From Ostreococcus lucimarinus (taxonomy: Eukaryota), in the NCBI GenBank assembly GCA_000092065.1, contig CP000595.1: a stretch of DNA of 64,000 bases; one strand, given 5' to 3'. Shown one piece after another: positions 18,339 through 35,631 of this stretch. Within the stretch, counting starts at the first letter, position 1. Each line of letters begins with the position of its first letter. The position numbers and the translations under genes were made by a program. The notes under the pieces were generated by a model, which had not been told where the DNA came from, did not search any database, and saw only the letters and a list, made by a program, of their open reading frames with translations.

Positions 18339-18411
18339 CGCGCGCGCGCTCGAACGCGCCGCGCGCGTCGCAGTCGCGTCGCCGCGCGCGCGAAGGATGG
18401 CACGATCGATC

Positions 18412-18535
18412 GACGCGCGTCGACCCTCGCGCCGTCGATCGATCGACGCGCGTCGACCCTCGCGCCGTCGATCGATCGCGCGCGTCGACCCTCGCGCCGT
18501 CGATCGACCGATCGATCGATCGACCGATCGACGAA
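18412..18535. repeat. Tandem array of a ~33-bp unit containing the palindrome gtcgacgcgcgtcgac (3 copies) plus a (gatcga/gaccga)n tail, in the divergent promoter upstream of the RBR gene
   Basis: Directly visible: gatcgatcgacgcgcgtcgaccctcgcgccgtc repeated three times at 18414-18512, then gatcgaccgatcgatcgatcgaccgatcgacg. Confidence 0.8.
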
Positions 18536-21810: not shown

Positions 21811-22461
21811 ATGAAGCTTCAAAAAATCGCATTGACGACGTGCGCGACGCTCTTGATGGCCACGAGCGCTATCGGCGCCGAGATGCGTGGTACGACGGCT
21901 TCGAGCGCGCGGCGACTGCTGCAACAAGCAGAGACCAACGACGCCGACGCTGATTCTCAAGCGCGCATCGATCGCATCAATTGGCTCGGTCGCGCTGTGG
22001 TAGAAAATGGCGCGTTCCAGTTTTGGACCAAGAACGCCTCTGGGTACTACACCGCCGTCAACGACTACTATGTCAAATCTTTCGAGCTCGAATCCGACGC
22101 CGACGTCGTCGGCAAGACGGACGTCCAACTGATCGTGCTTGTCGCCGGCGATCGCACGATCGAGGACTTTGAAGACGCCAAACCCGATGAAACACTCGAC
22201 TCCATCGCTTCTGCGTACCGCGAACACGATATGATGGTACAGGAAACCGGAAAAGCGACTCGATTCAACGAGCGCGTGATCGCGGACGACCGCGTGTACG
22301 ACGTCGTCGCCATCAAAGCTCCATTCGAAGGCGGGACGGTCGGGATCGCTATCCCGCGCAACGCCGATGACGACATCAACGTCGTCGTCACGAGCGAATC
22401 CGACGACGACGAATCCGACGACGACGAATCCGACGACGACGAATCCGACGACGACGACTAG
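21811..22461 (+). CDS. Hypothetical secreted protein with signal peptide and C-terminal (ESDDD)4 acidic repeat
   Basis: MKLQKIALTTCATLLMATSAIGA is a classic signal peptide. The tail ESDDDESDDDESDDDESDDDD is encoded by 4 x gaatccgacgacgac (22393-22455). Confidence 0.5.
   Translation: MKLQKIALTTCATLLMATSAIGAEMRGTTASSARRLLQQAETNDADADSQARIDRINWLGRAVVENGAFQFWTKNASGYYTAVNDYYVKSFELESDADVVGKTDVQLIVLVAGDRTIEDFEDAKPDETLDSIASAYREHDMMVQETGKATRFNERVIADDRVYDVVAIKAPFEGGTVGIAIPRNADDDINVVVTSESDDDESDDDESDDDESDDDD
22393..22455. repeat. 15-bp coding microsatellite (gaatccgacgacgac)x4
   Basis: Directly visible. It translates as ESDDD in the gene frame and as PTTTN in the overlapping upstream extension of the next ORF. 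Confidence 0.85.
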
Positions 22462-25890: not shown

Positions 25891-28800
25891 TTATTCGCGC
25901 GCGGTCGAGGACGAAGCGCCGCCGAAGCCGAAAAATTTGCCCAGACGGGACGCCGAGGAGGCGGCTTCGGCGCGCTCGCGATCGGCTCGGCTGGGAGCGC
26001 GCGCGAACGCGCGAGGTCGGGCGACGCTTTCGTCGTCGACGACGGTCGTGGTGACCTTGCGGACTCGAGCGATGCGCTCGCGCTCGGGCTTTGGCGGCGG
26101 TGGCGAAGATGGGGTGAAAGCGCGTGGTTTGGCGATGGGCGCGTCGTCGTCGACGCGCCTCTTGGTCACCTTGCGAACGCGAGCGACGCGTTGGCGTTGC
26201 GCCTTCTCAATTTTGGGTTTGGTGAACGCCGGAGCGGACGGGTAGTCCTCATCGTCGATGTCATCGTCGAGTGCTTCGTCGGGGAAGCACTCGGCGCAGT
26301 AGACGTTGCCGTCTGGACCGGGCATGACGTCCTCCGGTTCCATCTCACGCGAGCAGTTCGGACACTCGAAGGGCGCCGGCGCCTTGGACGAAGCTTGTCT
26401 TGGCGCTTCGTCCATCTCAGGTTCTTCCTCGGGTACGCACCGCGGGCAGTAATCCTTCCCGCCTGGACCCGTGATGATATCGTTCAACGTACACGGTGCG
26501 TCGCAATTCGGACACGTGGGGATTGAGCGTTTTCGCTGTGGCGACCAACATTTCGGACAGAATTGCCCACCGTCGACCTTGATGACGTCTTCGGGCTCGC
26601 ACGGCGTCTCGCAGTTCGGGCACACGAACGGCTCCGGCGCGCAACGCGGGCAGTGTTTCTTGCCGTCGACGTCGCTGATCGCGACTTCTTCGGGCTCGCA
26701 CGGCGTCTCGCAGTTCGGGCACACGAACGGCTCCGGCGCGCAACGCGGGCAGTGTTTCTTGCCGTCGACGTCGCTGATCGCGACTTCTTCGGGCTCGCAC
26801 GGCGTCTCGCAGTTCGGGCACACGAACGGCTCCGGCGCGCAACGCGGGCAGTGTTTCTTGCCGTCGACGTCGCTGATCGCGACTTCTTCGGGCTCGCACG
26901 GCGTCTCGCAGTTCGGGCACACGAACGGCTCCGGCGCGCAACGCGGGCAGTGTTTCTTGCCGTCGACGTCGCTGATCGCGACTTCTTCGGGCTCGCACGG
27001 CGTCTCGCAGTTCGGGCACACGAACGGCTCCGGCGCGCAACGCGGGCAGTGTTTCTTGCCGTCGACGTCGCTGATCGCGACTTCTTCGGGCTCGCACGGC
27101 GTCTCGCAGTTCGGGCACACGAACGGCTCCGGCGCGCAACGCGGGCAGTGTTTCTTGCCGTCGACGTCGCTGATCGCGACTTCTTCGGGCTCGCACGGCG
27201 TCTCGCAGTTCGGGCACACGAACGGCTCCGGCGCGCAACGCGGGCAGTGTTTCTTGCCGTCGACGTCGCTGATCGCGACTTCTTCGGGCTCGCACGGCGT
27301 CTCGCAGTTCGGGCACACGAACGGCTCGTCTTCCGGTACATCCTCCCGCAAGCACTCGTTGCAATATTCCAAATCATCCGGACCGATGACGATTTTATTC
27401 GGCGGCTCTACGGTGATTCCGCAATTTGGACAGTTGACATCCTTTTTGCGAGGACAATTTGGCGCTTCATGATCCGTCATACCGCAGATGGAGCAGCGCG
27501 AATCCGGCATGACGAGGTTCTTGCGCGCCAACTCATCGCTCGGCTCTTCGAGCACCGCATGCACACTCGGCGACTCCGCGAGCGGTTTTCTCTCTTGTGC
27601 TTGTTTGAATTGTGCTTGAAGCGCTTCCGATGGCTTTACGGTTGGATTCGCGCGGAAGCAGAAATCGCCAAACGCGAGCATAAACTTCTTCGCGTCCAGC
27701 CGGCTCCCTTGGCAGCACAAGTACCCGTCAGGTTTTTCATCGATGGCGTGCACCCAGCCATGTCGAGCGCCGTGGTACACCCAATCAGGAGTCGACGTTG
27801 AGAAATCGCTGTAGGTTCGGAAGACCAATTCACCAAACTTGTTCAATGGACTCTCGGCACCGACGGCCCACATTGTTGCAGCCTTGAACTCCATCACTCC
27901 CATGCCATCCTTGTCGGTGAAAGCCTTGTACACAGTGCTCACAGCGCGGATGTCCTCGTCAGACGATTTGCCTTGCTTCTTCATAGCCGTCGCAAATCTC
28001 GCTTGTGCTTCGTATGCTTCGACGATATGATGCGCCTTAGGGCGAAGTATGCGTTCAATCAGCCAGCGCGTTGCGCGAGCGACGCCTCTATCTGTCAATG
28101 GCACGCGATGACCGTAGATGATCCAAGCCATGAAGACGAGGGAAGTGAGGAATTCATCCAGGTGCATTCCCCAAGCGTGCTTGATACGCAGCTCCAACCT
28201 CGGACCTTCGCTCGGACATAGCGATCCTTCAACTGAGCCAGTCTCTCGATCGAGTGTGAGACACTTGGCGAGAAGCTCGGGCGCCTTGACGGTATCGAAT
28301 ACCGATCGAACGACGGCTGAGAGCTGATTGTACTGCGAGTTCGGTAGTTTGTCCTCAATCTTGCAACTCGAGATGAGGTACATGAACTGACGGTAAGACA
28401 TGAGCAAGTGATCATCCGCACCGACGCGCGTTTCGTTGTCACTCGGACCAGACGGAATCGACGCGTATGTTTTGAACAAACCCTCCAAAAATGTCCAGTG
28501 ATTGCGAATCTCGCTCCAGACGTAATAGTTGCCATCTTCGGGCTCGAAAGAAGTCAGCACATGGTTCGGTTTGCTGATACCCTTGCGAGTAAGCGGAGCG
28601 GCATCTTGGATGAGCTCCTTACCATTGTTGCGGTAACGCAGAATCGTTCGTTCAAGAGGTTTTGAATTGCTGTCCGCAAGCATTCTGCGCAAGTCGAGCA
28701 CCGTCATTTCCGGATTTTCGTGAACAAGATTAGATTGGAGCACCGGTTGCGCCAACACTGGCCCTTCTTCAATATCCGGTCGAGCGTACATTCGTTCATC

Positions 28801-31800
28801 TTCATCGGGATCCCTTGCCTCTTCTGGGTCATCTTGAAGAATCAACCACGCTGTCGTCTTGGCCAAATTACCGCGGCGGTTCTCGAGCTGCACCTCCGCC
28901 TTCCATTGAAGATTCTCGAGCTTCACTGTGTTGTGAGTGTCGAGCAGCTTGCCTTTGTGCGAGATATCAAATTTACTTCCAGTGACAGCAGGAAGCTCGT
29001 CTTCACCTGCGAACTCGCCCCGATCGCGCATGTCTCGCAATTCTGTGGCGAGCTTGGTGTGAACGCTTGAGACTTCCTCCTTGAGACGAACGGGGACGTA
29101 CACGTTCCATCCTAAATCTCTCGATCGATCCGGGTCTTCTTCCTGAATGATGATGGTTTCTCTCGTACGGAAGTGTCGTTCTCGCTCTTGTTTAATTCGC
29201 GACACCTCTTCGTCGTCTTGCTGGATGACGACGTACAAGTTGCCGTGACGAGCGCAGCGCTCTCCGGGCTCGCATTCGCAGAGGCAACAGAAATCGTCGT
29301 AGACGTCGTCGAGGTCAAGGTGCCACGGCAACACGTCACCGTCTTCATCCTGCGCCTCTGCTTTCGCTTTTGCGAGACTTTCATCGTAAGCATCCCAATC
29401 AGGGTGAATATCACCAAAGTAACCCTGGAACCGAACAAAGTGCGTGCGTCCACTGACTTCGGATGTTTGGAAAAAGAGCTCCTCTTGGTCCAAGTCTGCC
29501 GCGTCGTTCACATCCGTTTGAAAGGCTCTTCGAACGTTGTCAGCTTGTTGAAGTACCTCATACTCAGCGAGTTGCTTCTCTTCGTCCTCCTTCTCTTTCT
29601 CTTGCGTAGCGTGCGACTTCGCACGGGCGAGAGTGGAGTCTCGAAGTAAAAAGCGTTCGACCGACGGGTTGTGAGCGCCTGAGACGCCGCGTAAATCTTT
29701 TTGAGCCTGTCTGTAAAACTTGCGATAGAAGTTGTATCTCTTTTGAATCATCTTATTCTCGATGAAGAGTTGCACTTGTCGATTCATGTCCCGATTGTCC
29801 ACCGCCGCGGCGCGAATCAGGCTTTGACGCACCGGGCGCGAGAGCATCTTGTAGAAAGATTTGGCTCTGTCGTCATGGGTACCCAGAATGGTCTCCACAG
29901 TCTTGTGTCGCCAGAGCGAGCGAATTCCTCGAGCGAATTCCATTCGCAGGTGCATGTCGAAATTACCACTGAAATACAATCCTTGATCACCTTCCGCGGA
30001 CTCAAGCTGAAGAATCGCGCCCGCACTGGGGTTGAGCAGCGAAAGTGTCGGTTTCCATTCGACCCACTTGCGTTCGCGTAGCCACTGCGATGAGCGGTGC
30101 TCACTCACGACAATACTGATGACACGAGCGATAAAATTCTTGTAGGCCCGTCGAAGGTGCCAGTCAGCTCTCTTGAACCATTCCGCGCTGCTATAGGCTT
30201 CGTAAAAAATCCCTGCGCAGAAAACAAAGACAGCCACCGCAATGGTTTGCCACACGGCATTTCTGGCGTTGTCCTTTGTCCTTTGGTTGATGATGTACGA
30301 CACCGGCGCTATTGAAATGACTGAAAGCATCAGTACGAGCACCATGGCGAGCAAATGTAAGCCAAGATACCGTTTTGCTTCGCTCGTTTTAAAAGGTCGC
30401 AAAATGACGGTCGCGAACGACACAGATATTACGAGTAGAGCGGTGAGCGCCTGCACGACACCGTTGCCATTTCTGAGCTCGTAGCCTAGAAGTTGAATCA
30501 AGCACAACGCCAATATTCGTGCCATCTCGTTCACACGATACCAAACGTAGTCATCTGTGAACTGGAACGTTGCAAATCCAATCAAATCTCGTTTCCACAG
30601 CTTTTCCCATCCTCCCATGGCGTACTTTATTACCCAATACATGATGGCAAAGAAACCGATCGGGTACAGAAGCAGGGCGATCAAGGCGAGCGGGAACAGC
30701 TGTTGCCATTTCGTGCTTCCAGTCGTCGATGAGAAATATCCGAATCGCAAGTTCGGCTGCGCACGAATGTACCCAAACTTGTCCGTCACTGAACGATGAA
30801 ATATGAAAAAGTCAAATGTCGCGATGATGACGGCGACATAAGTAATTTGAATGACGTTCAAAATACTTCGAAGCATTAAAACCCATCGCCTTTGACCGTT
30901 GCGAACCACCTCGACACTCGGCTGCGTTTTGATGTAAAATTTACCCCAAATGTAGGCGTACAGCTGTGCGATGCCGTACATCAGCGCAAGTCCAATCGCC
31001 GGCATGGCCATTAATGAGTTCCAGCGTGCCACAAAATCGTATTCAGTCAAACATTCGAGGCCGATGACTTCGGGGTTGAGCTGCAGTATGTAGCATAGCT
31101 GTAGCAGCAAAGTCAAGCCGGGATAATCGTTCCAGCCAAGATTGTATCTCCCAATAATCCCAACTTCTTGCAGAAACACAACGAGCGATAATATACGACA
31201 ATAGACGATGTATCGAAAGCTCTGCTCGTCGATGAGCCAGGGCATCAAAATCGCCGAAAGCATCACCAAGCCGACGCCCGCACCATACAGCGTGTGCCCC
31301 AAAGCAGATCCGCACTTCAAACACTGACCATTGAGACGGTAGTAGCCCGTAACACACGTCTCACACGCGTCGTGAACATATCCCTCTGCGCACTGCACGG
31401 CATCCGCACTCGATCCGCCCGCGGCGATGGCGTCCACTTGCGCCGAGCCAGCGATGCCTTTCACACCGGGACACGCCTTATGGGGGAAGCACTGTCGCAT
31501 GGAGATGGGTTGCTTGTACGAGCGCGTTTCAGGAGACACGACGTAGAAACCAGGCTGCGGATAAGGCACCGTGAGATTCGTCTCAGCACAATACGTCCAA
31601 CGTTCGGGCGCTCCGTAGGAGTCGCTGTACTCTGGGCAAGGAAAGCAATATCCCGGCACGCCGTACCAACCGATGTTGCAGAAACATTGGTCCCTTGACG
31701 TTGCGCCTTGAACAGAGGTACTCCCAGCGGGACATGAAATGCAAGTTTCAAGTCCCGGGGTGTCGGAATAATACCCATTGCTGCATCGGGTACAGAAGCC

Positions 31801-34800
31801 TCGTTGCACGGTTCCGCCAGCCATACCCACCGGGCAGGCACGACAGGTGTGCGAGTTGATGGCGTCGGTGACTTGACCAAGCGGACAAATCGTGCACGTG
31901 CCGTAAGTCTTTGCGTTTGACGCATCACCAACGGCGCTTGCTGACTCTGTTGTGTAACCTAGCGCACAACCAACATGAATATTCAATGTTGCCTCCGCAC
32001 TCACCAGGCTGCCGTCGTCGACTACGCGAATCGCGTACTTCTCTAAAGGATTCTGCCGAACCAACGTGGTCGACGGAAAGAATCCGTAGAGTAATGGCGG
32101 CGCCAAATAATAAAGCGTGATCGATGTCCCGTTGTTCAGCAGACCAACCTGATCGAGCGTTGCTGCCGTAATTTCGTCCACCGGTCGTCCAAATCTGTCG
32201 ATTGATTTGTACCATCGACCTCTCCTACGCGTCGCCCAATCGCTTTGTGTGACGATCGGTTTCCACGTCAAGAAAAGTCTAAAGTATGGACCAGCGTCGA
32301 CGTCGTAAGGCGAAAACGTAATCGGGGTCAAATCTGCATCTCCTAAGTCATCCGCCGCTCGGTCTCTATTCATCACCGCGTTCACCTCCATGTTTGCCAA
32401 AAATGGGGGGTCATTCACAGGTCTGATCGTCACGTTGACTGAGGCGGACGCCGCGAGAGTCGAGTCGTAACTGGACACGATAGAGAACTCAATACTGTCG
32501 GTCCCGGTGAAATTCGCGCTCGGCGTATAGTTGAAGTACTGAAAATTGAGATTTCCGTCATCAGTGTTGACAGAACAATTCCACCAATACTGCACCTCCA
32601 CGTCATTGCACAGCTTTGTCACGGTGCCATTCTGCACGCCCGCATTCGTTACGGTGTAAGTTAAAGTGCCGGCATACTCCGAAGCCATGATCGTTCGCCC
32701 GAATCGACCCGTCATTGTCGTATCTTCATCCACCCAATAGTGCGAGACTACGCCGACGGGCTTTCCGGTGGCGGATCCGACGGCTACGACGACGCTGGCC
32801 ACGTCGTACAAAGTCGTATCGGGCGTGTTATCCAAACTGTCATCCACACTGTAAATGAAATAATCATACCCAGTAAAATTAATGTCTGGTATATACTCGA
32901 ACGTCGACGAATAAGCGACGGGACCGGCCGGAAGCTCGAGGGTTCCGTGCGCCGGCTGTTGACGAATTGTCCACGTGAGTCTGTCGCCGTCGATATCAGT
33001 CGCCGTCATAGGGCGGCTCAACTTGCTGCCCGTCGCGGTCGCATCAACCTGCGTACGCATTGGAATAATATCAGCCGTTGACTCGTAGCTCAATATTTGC
33101 TCACCGCCCGCGGCGACTGGTGCGTCGTTGCGTTTCGCGATATCCACTCGCGCCTCCTTGATATCCGTCGTGCAGCTATTGTCGTACAACGCCAGCACGG
33201 CGGGACTACAATCGACTGTGCCATCGGTGTCGAGACCGAGCGCTTGTGCGACGGTATATTCAACCGTTCCGCGAAAGGTGAATACGTCTACGCCGTTTTC
33301 ATTCGGTTTGGGTTGATACGACACGACGCCGTATCCGGCGTTCATCTCGACTTGGAAAGTAGCCTCGACTGCTTTCCGAGGATCACAGACGGTGAATATG
33401 TTCGCCACAAACGGAATACCCGAGCGACTCGTGAACAAAGGGAGCTCTCGCTGCCAGAGAGGCCCATCTTCGTACGTGTAAAAGTTGACTACGTTTCCGG
33501 ACGAGTTGCTCGTCACCGCCAACTGCGTCGCGTACGTCACCGTAATCGATTCTAATGCTAGTATGTCCGTCGGTATGTGTCCTACTTGATCTGCGCCGAT
33601 GAACGTGGAGTCCGTCCCGAACGTTGCATTCGTGTTCACCGTGTTTTGCGCGTTCAGTAAATCAATCCATGCCGCTGGTGGCGGTGGTGGATACGCAGGC
33701 GACGGCGGCGGGCTGGGTGGCGGTGGGAACGGTGGCGGACTAAAGGGCGTGGGTGATGGTGGCGGCGGTGGTGATGGAATCCCCGAATCATTCTTTCTAT
33801 CCCACGACCAAGTCGACGCACAGAGCGATAACGAAAGTATGAAGAAGAAATACAGGCAGAAGATGATGACGTTGTCGCTGAAGATGTAACGCAAGCGCTT
33901 CAGTGCCTTCTTCTTTGACGTGTACTTGTGCGTCTCATGGTTGCCGCGAAGCTTCAGGTGCACGTGACACGTCTGTGCAACGTTGATTCCATCGCCTAAG
34001 CGCCAACCAGGATCGACGAGACATCCCAAATAGAACAAATCCACGCTGTCCGGATCCGGCTGATGTTTCAAGCGCCGACAAACCATTCGCTTCACCTTTT
34101 GGAAGTTGTCCGTCAACTTGCAAGTCAAGCTAATGGTCTGCATCTCGTTCACGTCATCGATGTTTCGCATGAAAAGTGAATCTCGCAACCGCACGATAGT
34201 GGGCAATCGGACCACCACGGTGCACGTCGGGTCTGGATGTCCTGAAATCGCCGCGATGATCGCGGCCGATAAGTACATGCCTAGGAAAAACAACAGCAAC
34301 CCCAGGAACACCAAAAACCCATCGTCTCTGCTCTCTACCGGACACTTCGTCGTATCCGCTGGCGCTATCACGCATTGTCCGGCGTTCAGCGACCCCGATG
34401 GACATTCAATGTAACTATACGGGCAACAGCCCGTCTTGTTCGTGTTCAACAACGCGTCCGGATAAGGATAACTCACCAAAGATTGCGACAGGCACGAGCA
34501 TGACTCTCCGGCGAACCCTAAATCGCACACACACGTGCCATCTCGCTCGGAGCAATAGCCGTTACCGTTGCAATCCACCGACGGCGAACACGAAAATTTG
34601 CACCGATTGTCCCCGACGCCCACCCATCCTCGATCGCACACGCAATCCTTCGCCGTGGCGTCCCACGTCCCGTGTCCATTACACGCGTCCCGACCGTTGT
34701 TCGTCGTGGTGTTGAACTGGCACAGACTACCCGTGAAGGCATCAGGGCAAATGCACTCCTTGCTCGTCGCCGCGCACACGCCGTTATTCTCGCACCCGCA

Positions 34801-35631
34801 CGTTGCGCACCCATCCCCAGTCATCGCCCCCACGCACGTCGGCGTCGGCGCACTGTACGTCCAATTATACGCACACGTTCTACACGGTCCGTTATACACG
34901 CTTCCGCTCATGCACGTCGACGACGCCGCGCACCATCCGCAGCCGTCCGCTTTCGCGCAGTGCTCCGCGTTCCCAATCGCCGCGCACCTCGGATCGCACG
35001 GTATCTCAATCTCATTCGTCACCGCGTTCACCACTCGCGGCGCGTTCATCACCGGCGGCAAATGCGACACGCACAGCGCGGCGTCGAGCAAGGAGTAGCA
35101 CGTCGGGTTGTGTCCGTCCACGTCGCGCGAGTCGCACCACCCGCACCCGACCTCCTGCACGCACTCCCCGAACACCGCCCGTCGCTGGCACCGCAGCGGG
35201 CTCACGATGCTCTCATCGCTCGCGTTCCACGCCGTGAGCGCGTCGTCGTGCGCCGCCTCGGTCGTTCGCACGCCGAGCGCGCGTCGCGCGTCGCGCGCGC
35301 GCGCGCCCCGAGCGCCCGCGGCTTCGCTTCCCGGCGCGCTCGCGCTCGAGCGCGGGCTCGGCGCGAGCGCGAACAGCGCGAGGGCGACGCGAACGAGCGT
35401 TCGCAATCGCGCGTCGCGCGCGCGATCGCCGACGCGCATGGCGCCGCGTTCTGCGGTCGACGCATCCGCGGTGCCGTTCAAATCGAGGGTGTTACGCCCT
35501 ATAAATATACGTGATACCTTAAAAACACACACACTACTAGGGTTTAACGCAGACCAAACGTTTATTTCAAACGCGGTCGAACGCGGTCGGCCGCGCGCGC
35601 GCGCGTCGCTCGCACAACTCCGCGCGCGCAT
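25891..35631 (-). CDS. Giant multidomain membrane protein (3,246-aa ORF; probable start Met at 35439): signal peptide, PSI and EGF-like repeats, TM, Pro-rich segment, cadherin-like region (PVNDPP), ephrin-receptor-like Cys repeats, multi-pass TM module, large cytoplasmic region, C-terminal zinc-ribbon array
   Basis: 9.7-kb stop-free frame. PSI-type C..C......CGWC blocks ([14 protein letters not shown]; [16 protein letters not shown]). EGF blocks ([25 protein letters not shown]). Cys repeats CTICPLGQ...[11 protein letters not shown]...[11 protein letters not shown]...[10 protein letters not shown]. Hydrophobic module [17 protein letters not shown] ... [16 protein letters not shown] ... Repeated [33 protein letters not shown] zinc ribbons. 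Domain calls are by motif recall. Internal introns cannot be excluded. Confidence 0.75.
26584..27328. repeat. Perfect tandem repeat, 99-bp unit x ~7.5 copies, inside the coding region of the 3,246-aa gene (encodes 33-aa CPNC...CPRC zinc-ribbon units); flanked by degenerate copies (~26280-27480)
   Basis: Unit gacttcttcgggctcgcacggcgtctcgcagttcgggcacacgaacggctccggcgcgcaacgcgggcagtgtttcttgccgtcgacgtcgctgatcgc recurs with 100% identity starting at 26683, 26782, 26881, 26980, 27079 and 27178. A 5'-variant copy lies at 26584 and a partial copy at 27277-27328. The + ORFs 26471..27472 and 26563..27801 are repeat artefacts. Confidence 0.95.
30100..31300 (-). other. Multi-pass transmembrane module of the 3,246-aa protein, paralogous to the TM module of the 7,684-aa neighbour
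   Basis: [36 protein letters not shown] and [16 protein letters not shown] (minus strand) align with LAVADLQILGLDCVSTWDYFTRFATTMFAPFVWVFVLG and LYPVGLFLAAFGWLYVH of the + strand giant protein. Confidence 0.6.

Follow-up and report, generated by a model that had tools for sequence, protein, structure and literature searches.

What is a row of identical finger domains doing within the tail of a very large membrane protein, and how does such a row come to vary in length? This question is raised by a locus of Ostreococcus lucimarinus contained in a stretch of 64,000 nucleotides of contig CP000595.1 (GenBank assembly GCA_000092065.1), which is referred to here as the window. The locus consists of an open reading frame (ORF) of 3246 codons, counted from its first ATG (25891-35631, minus strand), which holds near its 3' end an array of 99-bp repeats. 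This array is a true coding minisatellite that stays in frame, each unit corresponding to one finger with four conserved cysteines (a Cys4 finger). The number of these fingers differs between assemblies, and the reading favored here is that it is tuned by slippage or recombination.

The periodicity of the array has been established by two procedures. Tandem Repeats Finder (TRF) finds 7.5 copies of a 99-bp period at 26584-27327 and scores them at 1481, far ahead of the next-best tandem repeat in the window, which scores 204. A direct base-by-base test shows that each nucleotide from 26588 to 27228 equals the one located 99 positions further on, with no exception. This test delimits a perfect minisatellite of 740 bp on the minus strand (26588-27327; 7.47 copies, 0 mismatches), a regularity that cannot have originated by chance. 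The array comprises seven full units (26635-27327, minus strand), each of which encodes a finger of 33 aa with the pattern CxxC-x19-CxxC, and a partial unit of 47 nt (26588-26634, minus strand) that supplies the 5' half of the diverged finger that follows. Since 99 bp are 33 codons, the units remain in frame throughout. The locus thus presents the features by which a coding minisatellite is recognized: near-identical units arranged head to tail, a length that is a multiple of three inside an ORF, and a copy number that differs between strains. Other long ORFs that cross the array in different frames (for instance, 26563-27801 on the plus strand and 26417-27364 on the minus strand) were dismissed as by-products of a unit free of stop codons. 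The original prediction, which was made from the sequence of the window, had given the position of the array, the sequence of its unit, the CxxC-x19-CxxC spacing, and the presence of degenerate copies on both flanks, and all of these details proved to be correct.

The number of units is highly variable. Clade-A assemblies contain 0, 1, 2, 3, 7, or 8 full units, and within the 90%-identity cluster nearest the window the counts are 0 (P0016), 1 (P0001 and many others), 2 (P0012), 7 (the window itself), and 8 (P0011). The allele of eight units is located on a contig of 453,766 bp from the Joint Genome Institute (JGI), designated L003, where all eight units are identical to one another and to the unit of the window. 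The sequences that flank this array are almost those of the window, with a divergence of 0-0.24% on the upstream side (29000-26584) and of 0.3% on the downstream side, and the occurrence of seven and eight units on nearly identical haplotypes indicates that copy number changes faster than point substitutions accumulate. The allele of one unit on L004 carries a nonsynonymous A/G single-nucleotide polymorphism (Thr to Ala) in the only full unit that it has, which makes this allele resolvable by an assembler, so that a collapsed long array is unlikely in this case.

The behavior of assemblies at this site has to be considered when these counts are read. Scanning of JGI metagenome contigs with a 41-mer specific for the unit retrieved eight contigs, half of which span the array, with 1, 2, 3, and 3 units, while the other four end inside it. 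Three of the four broken contigs stop after exactly 47 nt of a unit, where the full unit ceases to be identical to the diverged finger that follows, and this place constitutes a branch point in a de Bruijn graph. The termination of contigs within the array implies that short-read assemblers break or collapse there; low counts are consequently lower bounds, and the complete proteins deposited in databases are biased toward short alleles. Hypervariability in copy number and a hazard for assembly had both been anticipated for this array, and both have now been observed, the former also in other clades (4-8, 3-8, and 10-11 fingers).

Three other clades of Ostreococcus (clades 2 to 4) exhibit separately amplified units of their own, inserted at the same site, between the first finger of the tail and either the so-called KCW finger or the last one. 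In clade 2, two units of 29 aa share 99% DNA identity, and the alleles hold 10 or 11 fingers. In clade 3, alleles of 4-8 fingers are built from three unit subtypes (GPED, EPKD, and DPED) in varied order, and the amino-acid differences between units fall at two loop codons. Clade 4 shows a higher-order repeat of two finger types, with alleles of 3-8 fingers. The units of these clades are 93-100% identical in DNA and differ from one another at both synonymous and nonsynonymous sites; the synonymous markers make their arrays assemblable, and for this reason their variation in copy number is credible. In clades 5 and 6, which are O. mediterraneus-like, the number of fingers is three and does not vary.

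When the fingers of the different clades are compared, the outer ones are orthologous across clades, while the middle ones resemble each other within each clade, a pattern that, judged from the alignments, is one of concerted evolution or recurrent local amplification. This agrees with the earlier proposal of an old core combined with either a recent expansion or concerted evolution, as the first and last fingers are orthologous and the middle of the array has been amplified clade by clade. The KCW finger is instructive in this respect, because its first 47 nt are exactly those of the repeat unit, which indicates that exchanges take place inside fingers and that intact fingers are still regenerated. 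As a separate observation in clade 2, the tails of P0038, P0121, and P0124 (one of them on a contig of 1.24 Mb) are frameshifted, at differing points, just after the amplified units; these frameshifts could be either long-read indel errors in a GC-rich repeat or real disrupted alleles.

Regarding the nature of the finger, an alignment of 31 distinct units from six Ostreococcus clades reveals that only C6, P7, C9, C29, and C32 are invariant, with N8 nearly so. The fifth Cys present in the amplified unit is not conserved among them. Four invariant cysteines accompanied by a variable fifth are the signature predicted for a four-ligand zinc site. The AlphaFold model of the tail shows two beta-hairpins and a short helix in each unit, with a predicted local distance difference test (pLDDT) value of around 70 and a predicted template modeling score (pTM) of 0.29. 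The unit thereby presents the traits of a generic Cys4 finger, namely two CxxC knuckles at beta-hairpins and four conserved Cys.

The closest relatives of this finger appear to be found among LIM domains. Pfam LIM always aligns to the units through its profile positions 27-55 of 58, which correspond to the second LIM finger, and in the ortholog P0002, which holds 11 diverse fingers, the LIM score reaches 40.4 bits by summing six half-domain matches. A sequence search of the PDB with the unit profile returned whole-unit matches only to finger 2 of MLP/CRP LIM domains, while C2H2 and archaeal ribbon proteins matched only over the 9-10-residue "PF.CPNCG" knuckle. The top Foldseek matches were LMO2, PINCH1 LIM4-5, and CRP, with weak structural scores. 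According to these sequence comparisons and the predicted model, the unit most resembles a LIM-finger-2-like Cys4 finger, closest to the second (CCCC) finger of LIM but not a canonical LIM domain. The zinc-ribbon type that had originally been assigned to it is upheld by the invariance of the four Cys and of the CPxC proline in the 31 units, as well as by the modeled hairpins, and its label can be refined in this sense.

Other assignments were considered and rejected. No named zinc-ribbon family can be given to a single unit, as all Pfam ribbon families fall below threshold (E values of 0.04-7). A canonical LIM domain (PF00412) is defined by Cx2Cx16-23Hx2C, a spacer of exactly 2 residues, and Cx2Cx16-21Cx2-3(C/H/D), whereas the repeat is a single CCCC finger with no His ligand, and its fingers are set further apart, by 6 residues in the case of the window, by 4 in clades 2 and 3, and by 3 in clade 4. 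The units also lack the His ligands of a PRDM9-type C2H2 array (Cx2-4Cx12Hx3-5H with a TGEKP-like linker).

The array is embedded in a longer tail, which begins at residue 2695 and contains, in this order, a CCHC knuckle, finger 1, the seven identical fingers, the KCW finger, two diverged fingers, an acidic stretch, and two basic repeats. The CCHC zinc knuckle, of 14 aa and pattern Cx2Cx4Hx4C (27454-27495, minus strand), lies just upstream of the finger array; it had escaped the original prediction, is present in all six clades, and gives a weak zf-CCHC match in an ortholog. Finger 1, of 27 aa (27352-27432, minus strand), is an old finger orthologous in clades 1-4. On the other side, the chimeric end of the array is formed by the KCW finger, of 25 aa (26548-26622, minus strand), whose 5' half is the part identical to the repeat unit and which is orthologous in clades 1-3. 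It is followed by an old diverged finger of 26 aa (26437-26514, minus strand) and by the last finger, also of 26 aa (26287-26364, minus strand) and orthologous in clades 1-4. The C-terminal part of the protein holds two basic repeats with the pattern R.RVARVR.VT..DD..IARP.(A/G)F (26005-26196, minus strand), of which some other clades have three copies. This basic repeat is copy-variable in its own right, with two copies in the window and three or two among the members of clade 4 (P0004 versus P0058). The finger region itself is strongly acidic (22.6% D+E).

The protein that carries this tail has six clusters of orthologs, all of them from Ostreococcus and with identities of 60-97%. Translation probably begins at M65 (35439) rather than at the first ATG (35631), which would add 64 N-terminal residues; a stretch resembling a signal peptide comes after M65, as it does in the orthologs. 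From the N- to the C-terminus, the protein shows a Cys-rich ectodomain of PSI/EGF-like type, a first transmembrane (TM) helix, a loop of ~120 aa that is ubiquitin-like (weak match), a second TM helix, and a Pro-rich stretch. These are followed by a second ectodomain with cadherin-like (Big_9/Cadherin_4) and Ephrin_rec_like regions, a multi-pass TM block, a conserved region of ~900 aa, and the zinc-finger tail. The conserved domain between TM1 and TM2, of ~90 aa and ubiquitin-like in appearance (33949-34218, minus strand; residues 472-561), has as its sole match a weak one to Pfam UCH_UBL1 (E 0.086). The ~900-aa conserved region that precedes the tail gave no family match, and a PDB sequence search with residues 1440-2710 returned no match.

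The TM block (30187-31305, minus strand), with eight strong and two weak hydrophobic segments according to hydropathy on the ortholog alignment, lies between the ectodomain and the 1430 C-terminal residues in which the array is contained. In the comparison of L003 (JGI 3300046167, Ga0494228_00130) with the window, divergence is 0-0.4% almost everywhere and rises to 3-15.6% across the TM block, within the stretch 29000-32000. The amino-acid identity of residues 1500-1950 is 86%, and the TM block of L003 is no nearer to the other sampled clades (75% or less), which suggests that this haplotype is a mosaic, with a deep allele or an introgression in the membrane domain. As for the side of the membrane on which the fingers reside, the tail is likely cytosolic, as indicated by the CCHC knuckle, the Cys4 sites, and the scarcity of N-glycosylation sequons, with 2 in the last 1430 residues versus 15 in the two ectodomains.

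These data can be joined in a single explanation, which we regard as rather more probable than its competitors: a finger minisatellite in the tail of a giant receptor-like protein, whose finger count is tuned by slippage or recombination and sets, by analogy, a valency. Under this explanation, each unit would be a small, independently folding Cys4 finger, in which two beta-hairpins bear the CxxC knuckles and a short helix comes after them, and the fingers would follow one another like beads on a string along the C-terminal tail of a giant protein that crosses the membrane several times and resembles an adhesion receptor. From what is known of minisatellites, replication slippage or unequal exchange (between sister chromatids or at meiosis) between identical 99-bp units would add or remove fingers, and since the units are identical in DNA and their length is a multiple of three, whole fingers can be gained or lost with no break of the frame. 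Crossovers within units would regenerate intact fingers, keeping the units homogeneous and allowing copy number to outpace point substitution. A stable core would then be formed by the outer fingers together with the CCHC knuckle and the basic repeats near the C-terminus, and the middle of the array would be a tunable zone. By analogy with scaffolds of tandem LIM domains, the number of fingers in this zone may determine the valency of a surface on which cytosolic partners dock, or its reach. The original prediction had likewise placed the array on a cytoplasmic tail, which is likely, and had suggested a polyvalent platform able to recruit partners, which is an analogy.

A stronger version of this idea is that the minisatellite acts as a selected "valency dial", in which high-rate gain and loss of LIM-like fingers retunes the coupling of a giant surface receptor or channel-like protein to its cytosolic partners (cytoskeleton, signaling). 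This would generate heritable diversity from cell to cell for virus resistance, recognition, or niche adaptation. We consider this version improbable.

Several points weigh against the proposed explanation. Zinc binding by the fingers is predicted from their motifs only, and the tail in the window scores 19.8 bits against Pfam LIM, below the gathering threshold of 22.9. The TM helix count is 8-10 by hydropathy, so its parity is ambiguous, and the AlphaFold model of the block, with a pLDDT of 41, is unusable for a helix count or a fold search. The alleles of 0-3 units come from short-read assemblies, which are able to collapse perfect repeats, and these lower counts are therefore partly unreliable. 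Finally, three fingers suffice in the O. mediterraneus-like clades, which means that many fingers are not essential and fits a neutral reading equally well.

Such a neutral reading, in which the fingers fold, extra copies are idle, and a slippage-prone length drifts in a flexible tail, is a possible explanation that we hold to be less probable than a tuned array. It is consistent with the range of 0 to 8 copies in one species on nearly identical haplotypes and with the invariable three fingers of the O. mediterraneus-like clades, as well as with the low pTM, which suggests that there is no fixed arrangement between fingers. It accounts less easily for the recurrence of amplification at one site in four clades, where each time entire fingers were multiplied in frame with all four Cys kept, and for the clustering of the amino-acid differences of clade 3 at two loop codons. 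A different doubt concerns the exact count of seven in the window, which might be an artefact of a perfect repeat that was resolved incorrectly. Perfect 99-bp repeats do defeat assemblers, as illustrated by the metagenome contigs that stop in the array, three of them at nt 47; however, the independent 454-kb contig with eight identical units demonstrates that long arrays exist, and as the array measures just 740 bp, the possible error is of around one unit either way in an array that is itself real. We therefore deem it quite unlikely that the count is an artefact.

Two further alternatives concern what the tail does and where it lies. The tail might bind nucleic acid, with the CCHC knuckle, the Cys4 ribbons, and the Arg/Lys-rich repeats tethering RNA at the membrane. 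The retroviral-type knuckle found in all clades, the basic RVARVRKVT repeats at the C-terminus, and the partial profile matches to archaeal chains annotated as "Zn-ribbon RNA-binding protein involved in translation" would fit this role. Nevertheless, the matches to RNA-binding ribbons are limited to the 9-residue CPNCG knuckle, while whole units match only LIM fingers, and the acidity of the finger region is unfavorable for nucleic acid, all of which makes RNA tethering unlikely. The remaining alternative is that the tail is extracellular and its units are disulfide-bonded Cys-rich modules, as the ambiguous helix parity would permit in a protein that has other extracellular Cys-rich repeats (EGF and Ephrin_rec_like). 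Against this, paired CPxC knuckles with a spacer of 15-21 residues and an adjacent Cx2Cx4Hx4C are classic patterns of zinc ligands, the amplified unit has an odd number of Cys (five), and the last 1430 residues are nearly free of sequons and rich in charged, coiled-coil-like sequence. An extracellular tail is accordingly regarded as very unlikely, and a cytosolic array of zinc fingers whose number is tuned by slippage or recombination is the explanation retained.

The module and its host gene have a narrow distribution. The original prediction had proposed to look for the 33-aa unit in other genomes, and when this was done in an exhaustive HMMER search with a profile of the unit against 1.84 billion representative proteins, 31 matches were obtained at E<=1e-3. 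The best 8 of these 31 matches are full-length members or fragments of the Ostreococcus family described here, and the rest are short proteins of scattered occurrence that bear two or three ribbons of similar type, so that the unit occurs almost only in this gene family. The searches brought up no relative encoded by a virus. Word-index searches with the TM-plus-cytoplasmic region, and with an alignment of seven sequences of it, retrieved nothing and one fragment, respectively, and missed the known orthologs, presumably due to saturation of the index by TM-rich queries; negatives for hydrophobic queries of this kind are not to be trusted. The restriction of the gene family to Ostreococcus is thus a result of sequence searches of poor recall. 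The ortholog is expressed, as a protein from the transcriptome of O. mediterraneus (UniRef A0A7S0PR14), named "CCHC-type domain-containing protein", contains the tail. An exact look-up of the giant protein and of a downstream ORF of 721 aa found neither of them on record, and a literature search found no paper on the array gene or on coding minisatellites of Ostreococcus. The LIM-like protein Stc1, which has Ostreococcus homologues, is small and different from the array protein (PMC2875855).

The array gene is located in a compact eukaryotic genome with few introns. Neighboring ORFs encode Vps41, an acetolactate synthase, a protein of the retinoblastoma family, and an AMP-binding/ankyrin protein. 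The acetolactate synthase ORF and an adjacent ORF of 522 aa are 100% identical, over the full entries, to XP_001421626.1 and XP_001421625.1 from O. lucimarinus CCE9901. The array gene and an ORF of 7684 aa (35688-58742, plus strand) are arranged head to head, their starts only ~56 bp apart. This ORF is a distant paralog, which can be aligned with the array gene over its first TM helices and over its EGF/Teneurin-like, cadherin-like/Big_9, and Ephrin_rec_like parts. It carries an Ion_trans domain near its C-terminus, and it has the appearance of a very large adhesion-like protein joined to a module of ion-channel type. The window also contains two smaller near-perfect repeats, one at 18403-18511 (33 bp x 3.3, 96% identity), near the 5' end of the retinoblastoma-like ORF, and another at 22390-22457 (15 bp x 4.5, 98% identity).

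The array has practical and conceptual implications. It offers a fast-mutating coding marker for the population genomics of Ostreococcus that can be sized by polymerase chain reaction, and it shows that databases are skewed toward low finger numbers by short-read assembly at this kind of site. It also brings to light a narrowly distributed single-finger module, LIM-like and predicted to bind zinc, for which Pfam has no family. If the number of fingers is functional, finger arrays in the tails of membrane receptors would evolve by the minisatellite mechanism known for nuclear C2H2 arrays. Should the "valency dial" be true, the locus would be the equivalent, in a membrane receptor, of the PRDM9 minisatellite, and its building block would be a LIM-like module of one finger that had not been described before and is known so far only from this genus.

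Among known systems, tandem LIM proteins (finger 2 of CRP/MLP, as well as PINCH, LMO, and FHL) share with the Ostreococcus unit the succession F-x-C-x2-C-...-D-G-x-x-Y-C-x2-C, and tandem LIM scaffolds would also resemble the array, by analogy, in the use of tandem zinc modules as docking scaffolds for proteins. Unlike them, the Ostreococcus units are single fingers, with no CCHC first finger paired to each unit, and their spacer is of 6 residues (3-4 in other clades) instead of the fixed 2. Generic ribbons (Zn_ribbon_8, DZR, and TFIIB-type) are similar in having two CPxC-type knuckles ~19 residues apart on predicted beta-hairpins, and differ in that the Ostreococcus unit scores below threshold for every Pfam ribbon family. 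The FLO1/ALS adhesins of fungi contain in-frame intragenic repeats that recombine, in extracellular Ser/Thr-rich stalks. They resemble the array gene in being large surface or adhesion-like proteins whose length changes by repeat recombination and varies at the population level, whereas the Ostreococcus repeats are predicted folded zinc fingers, probably located in a cytosolic tail.

The zinc-finger array of PRDM9 is likewise encoded by a minisatellite (PMC3890296) that is difficult to assemble (PMC5408865). In both systems one unit is one finger, in frame and near-identical in DNA, with a number and order that are polymorphic within species, a rapid turnover between species, and a difficult assembly from short reads. 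In contrast to PRDM9, the fingers of the Ostreococcus array are Cys4 and LIM-like rather than C2H2, with no evidence of DNA binding, and they reside in the tail of a membrane protein instead of a nuclear factor. Furthermore, the units of O. lucimarinus are 100% identical and show no variation of the "contact residue" type, only clade 3 having variants at loop codons. Coding minisatellites of variable copy number are already known, while the module, the host protein, and the lineage are new; the closest evolutionary analogue of the array is the PRDM9 minisatellite, and its closest structural relative is probably the second finger of LIM.

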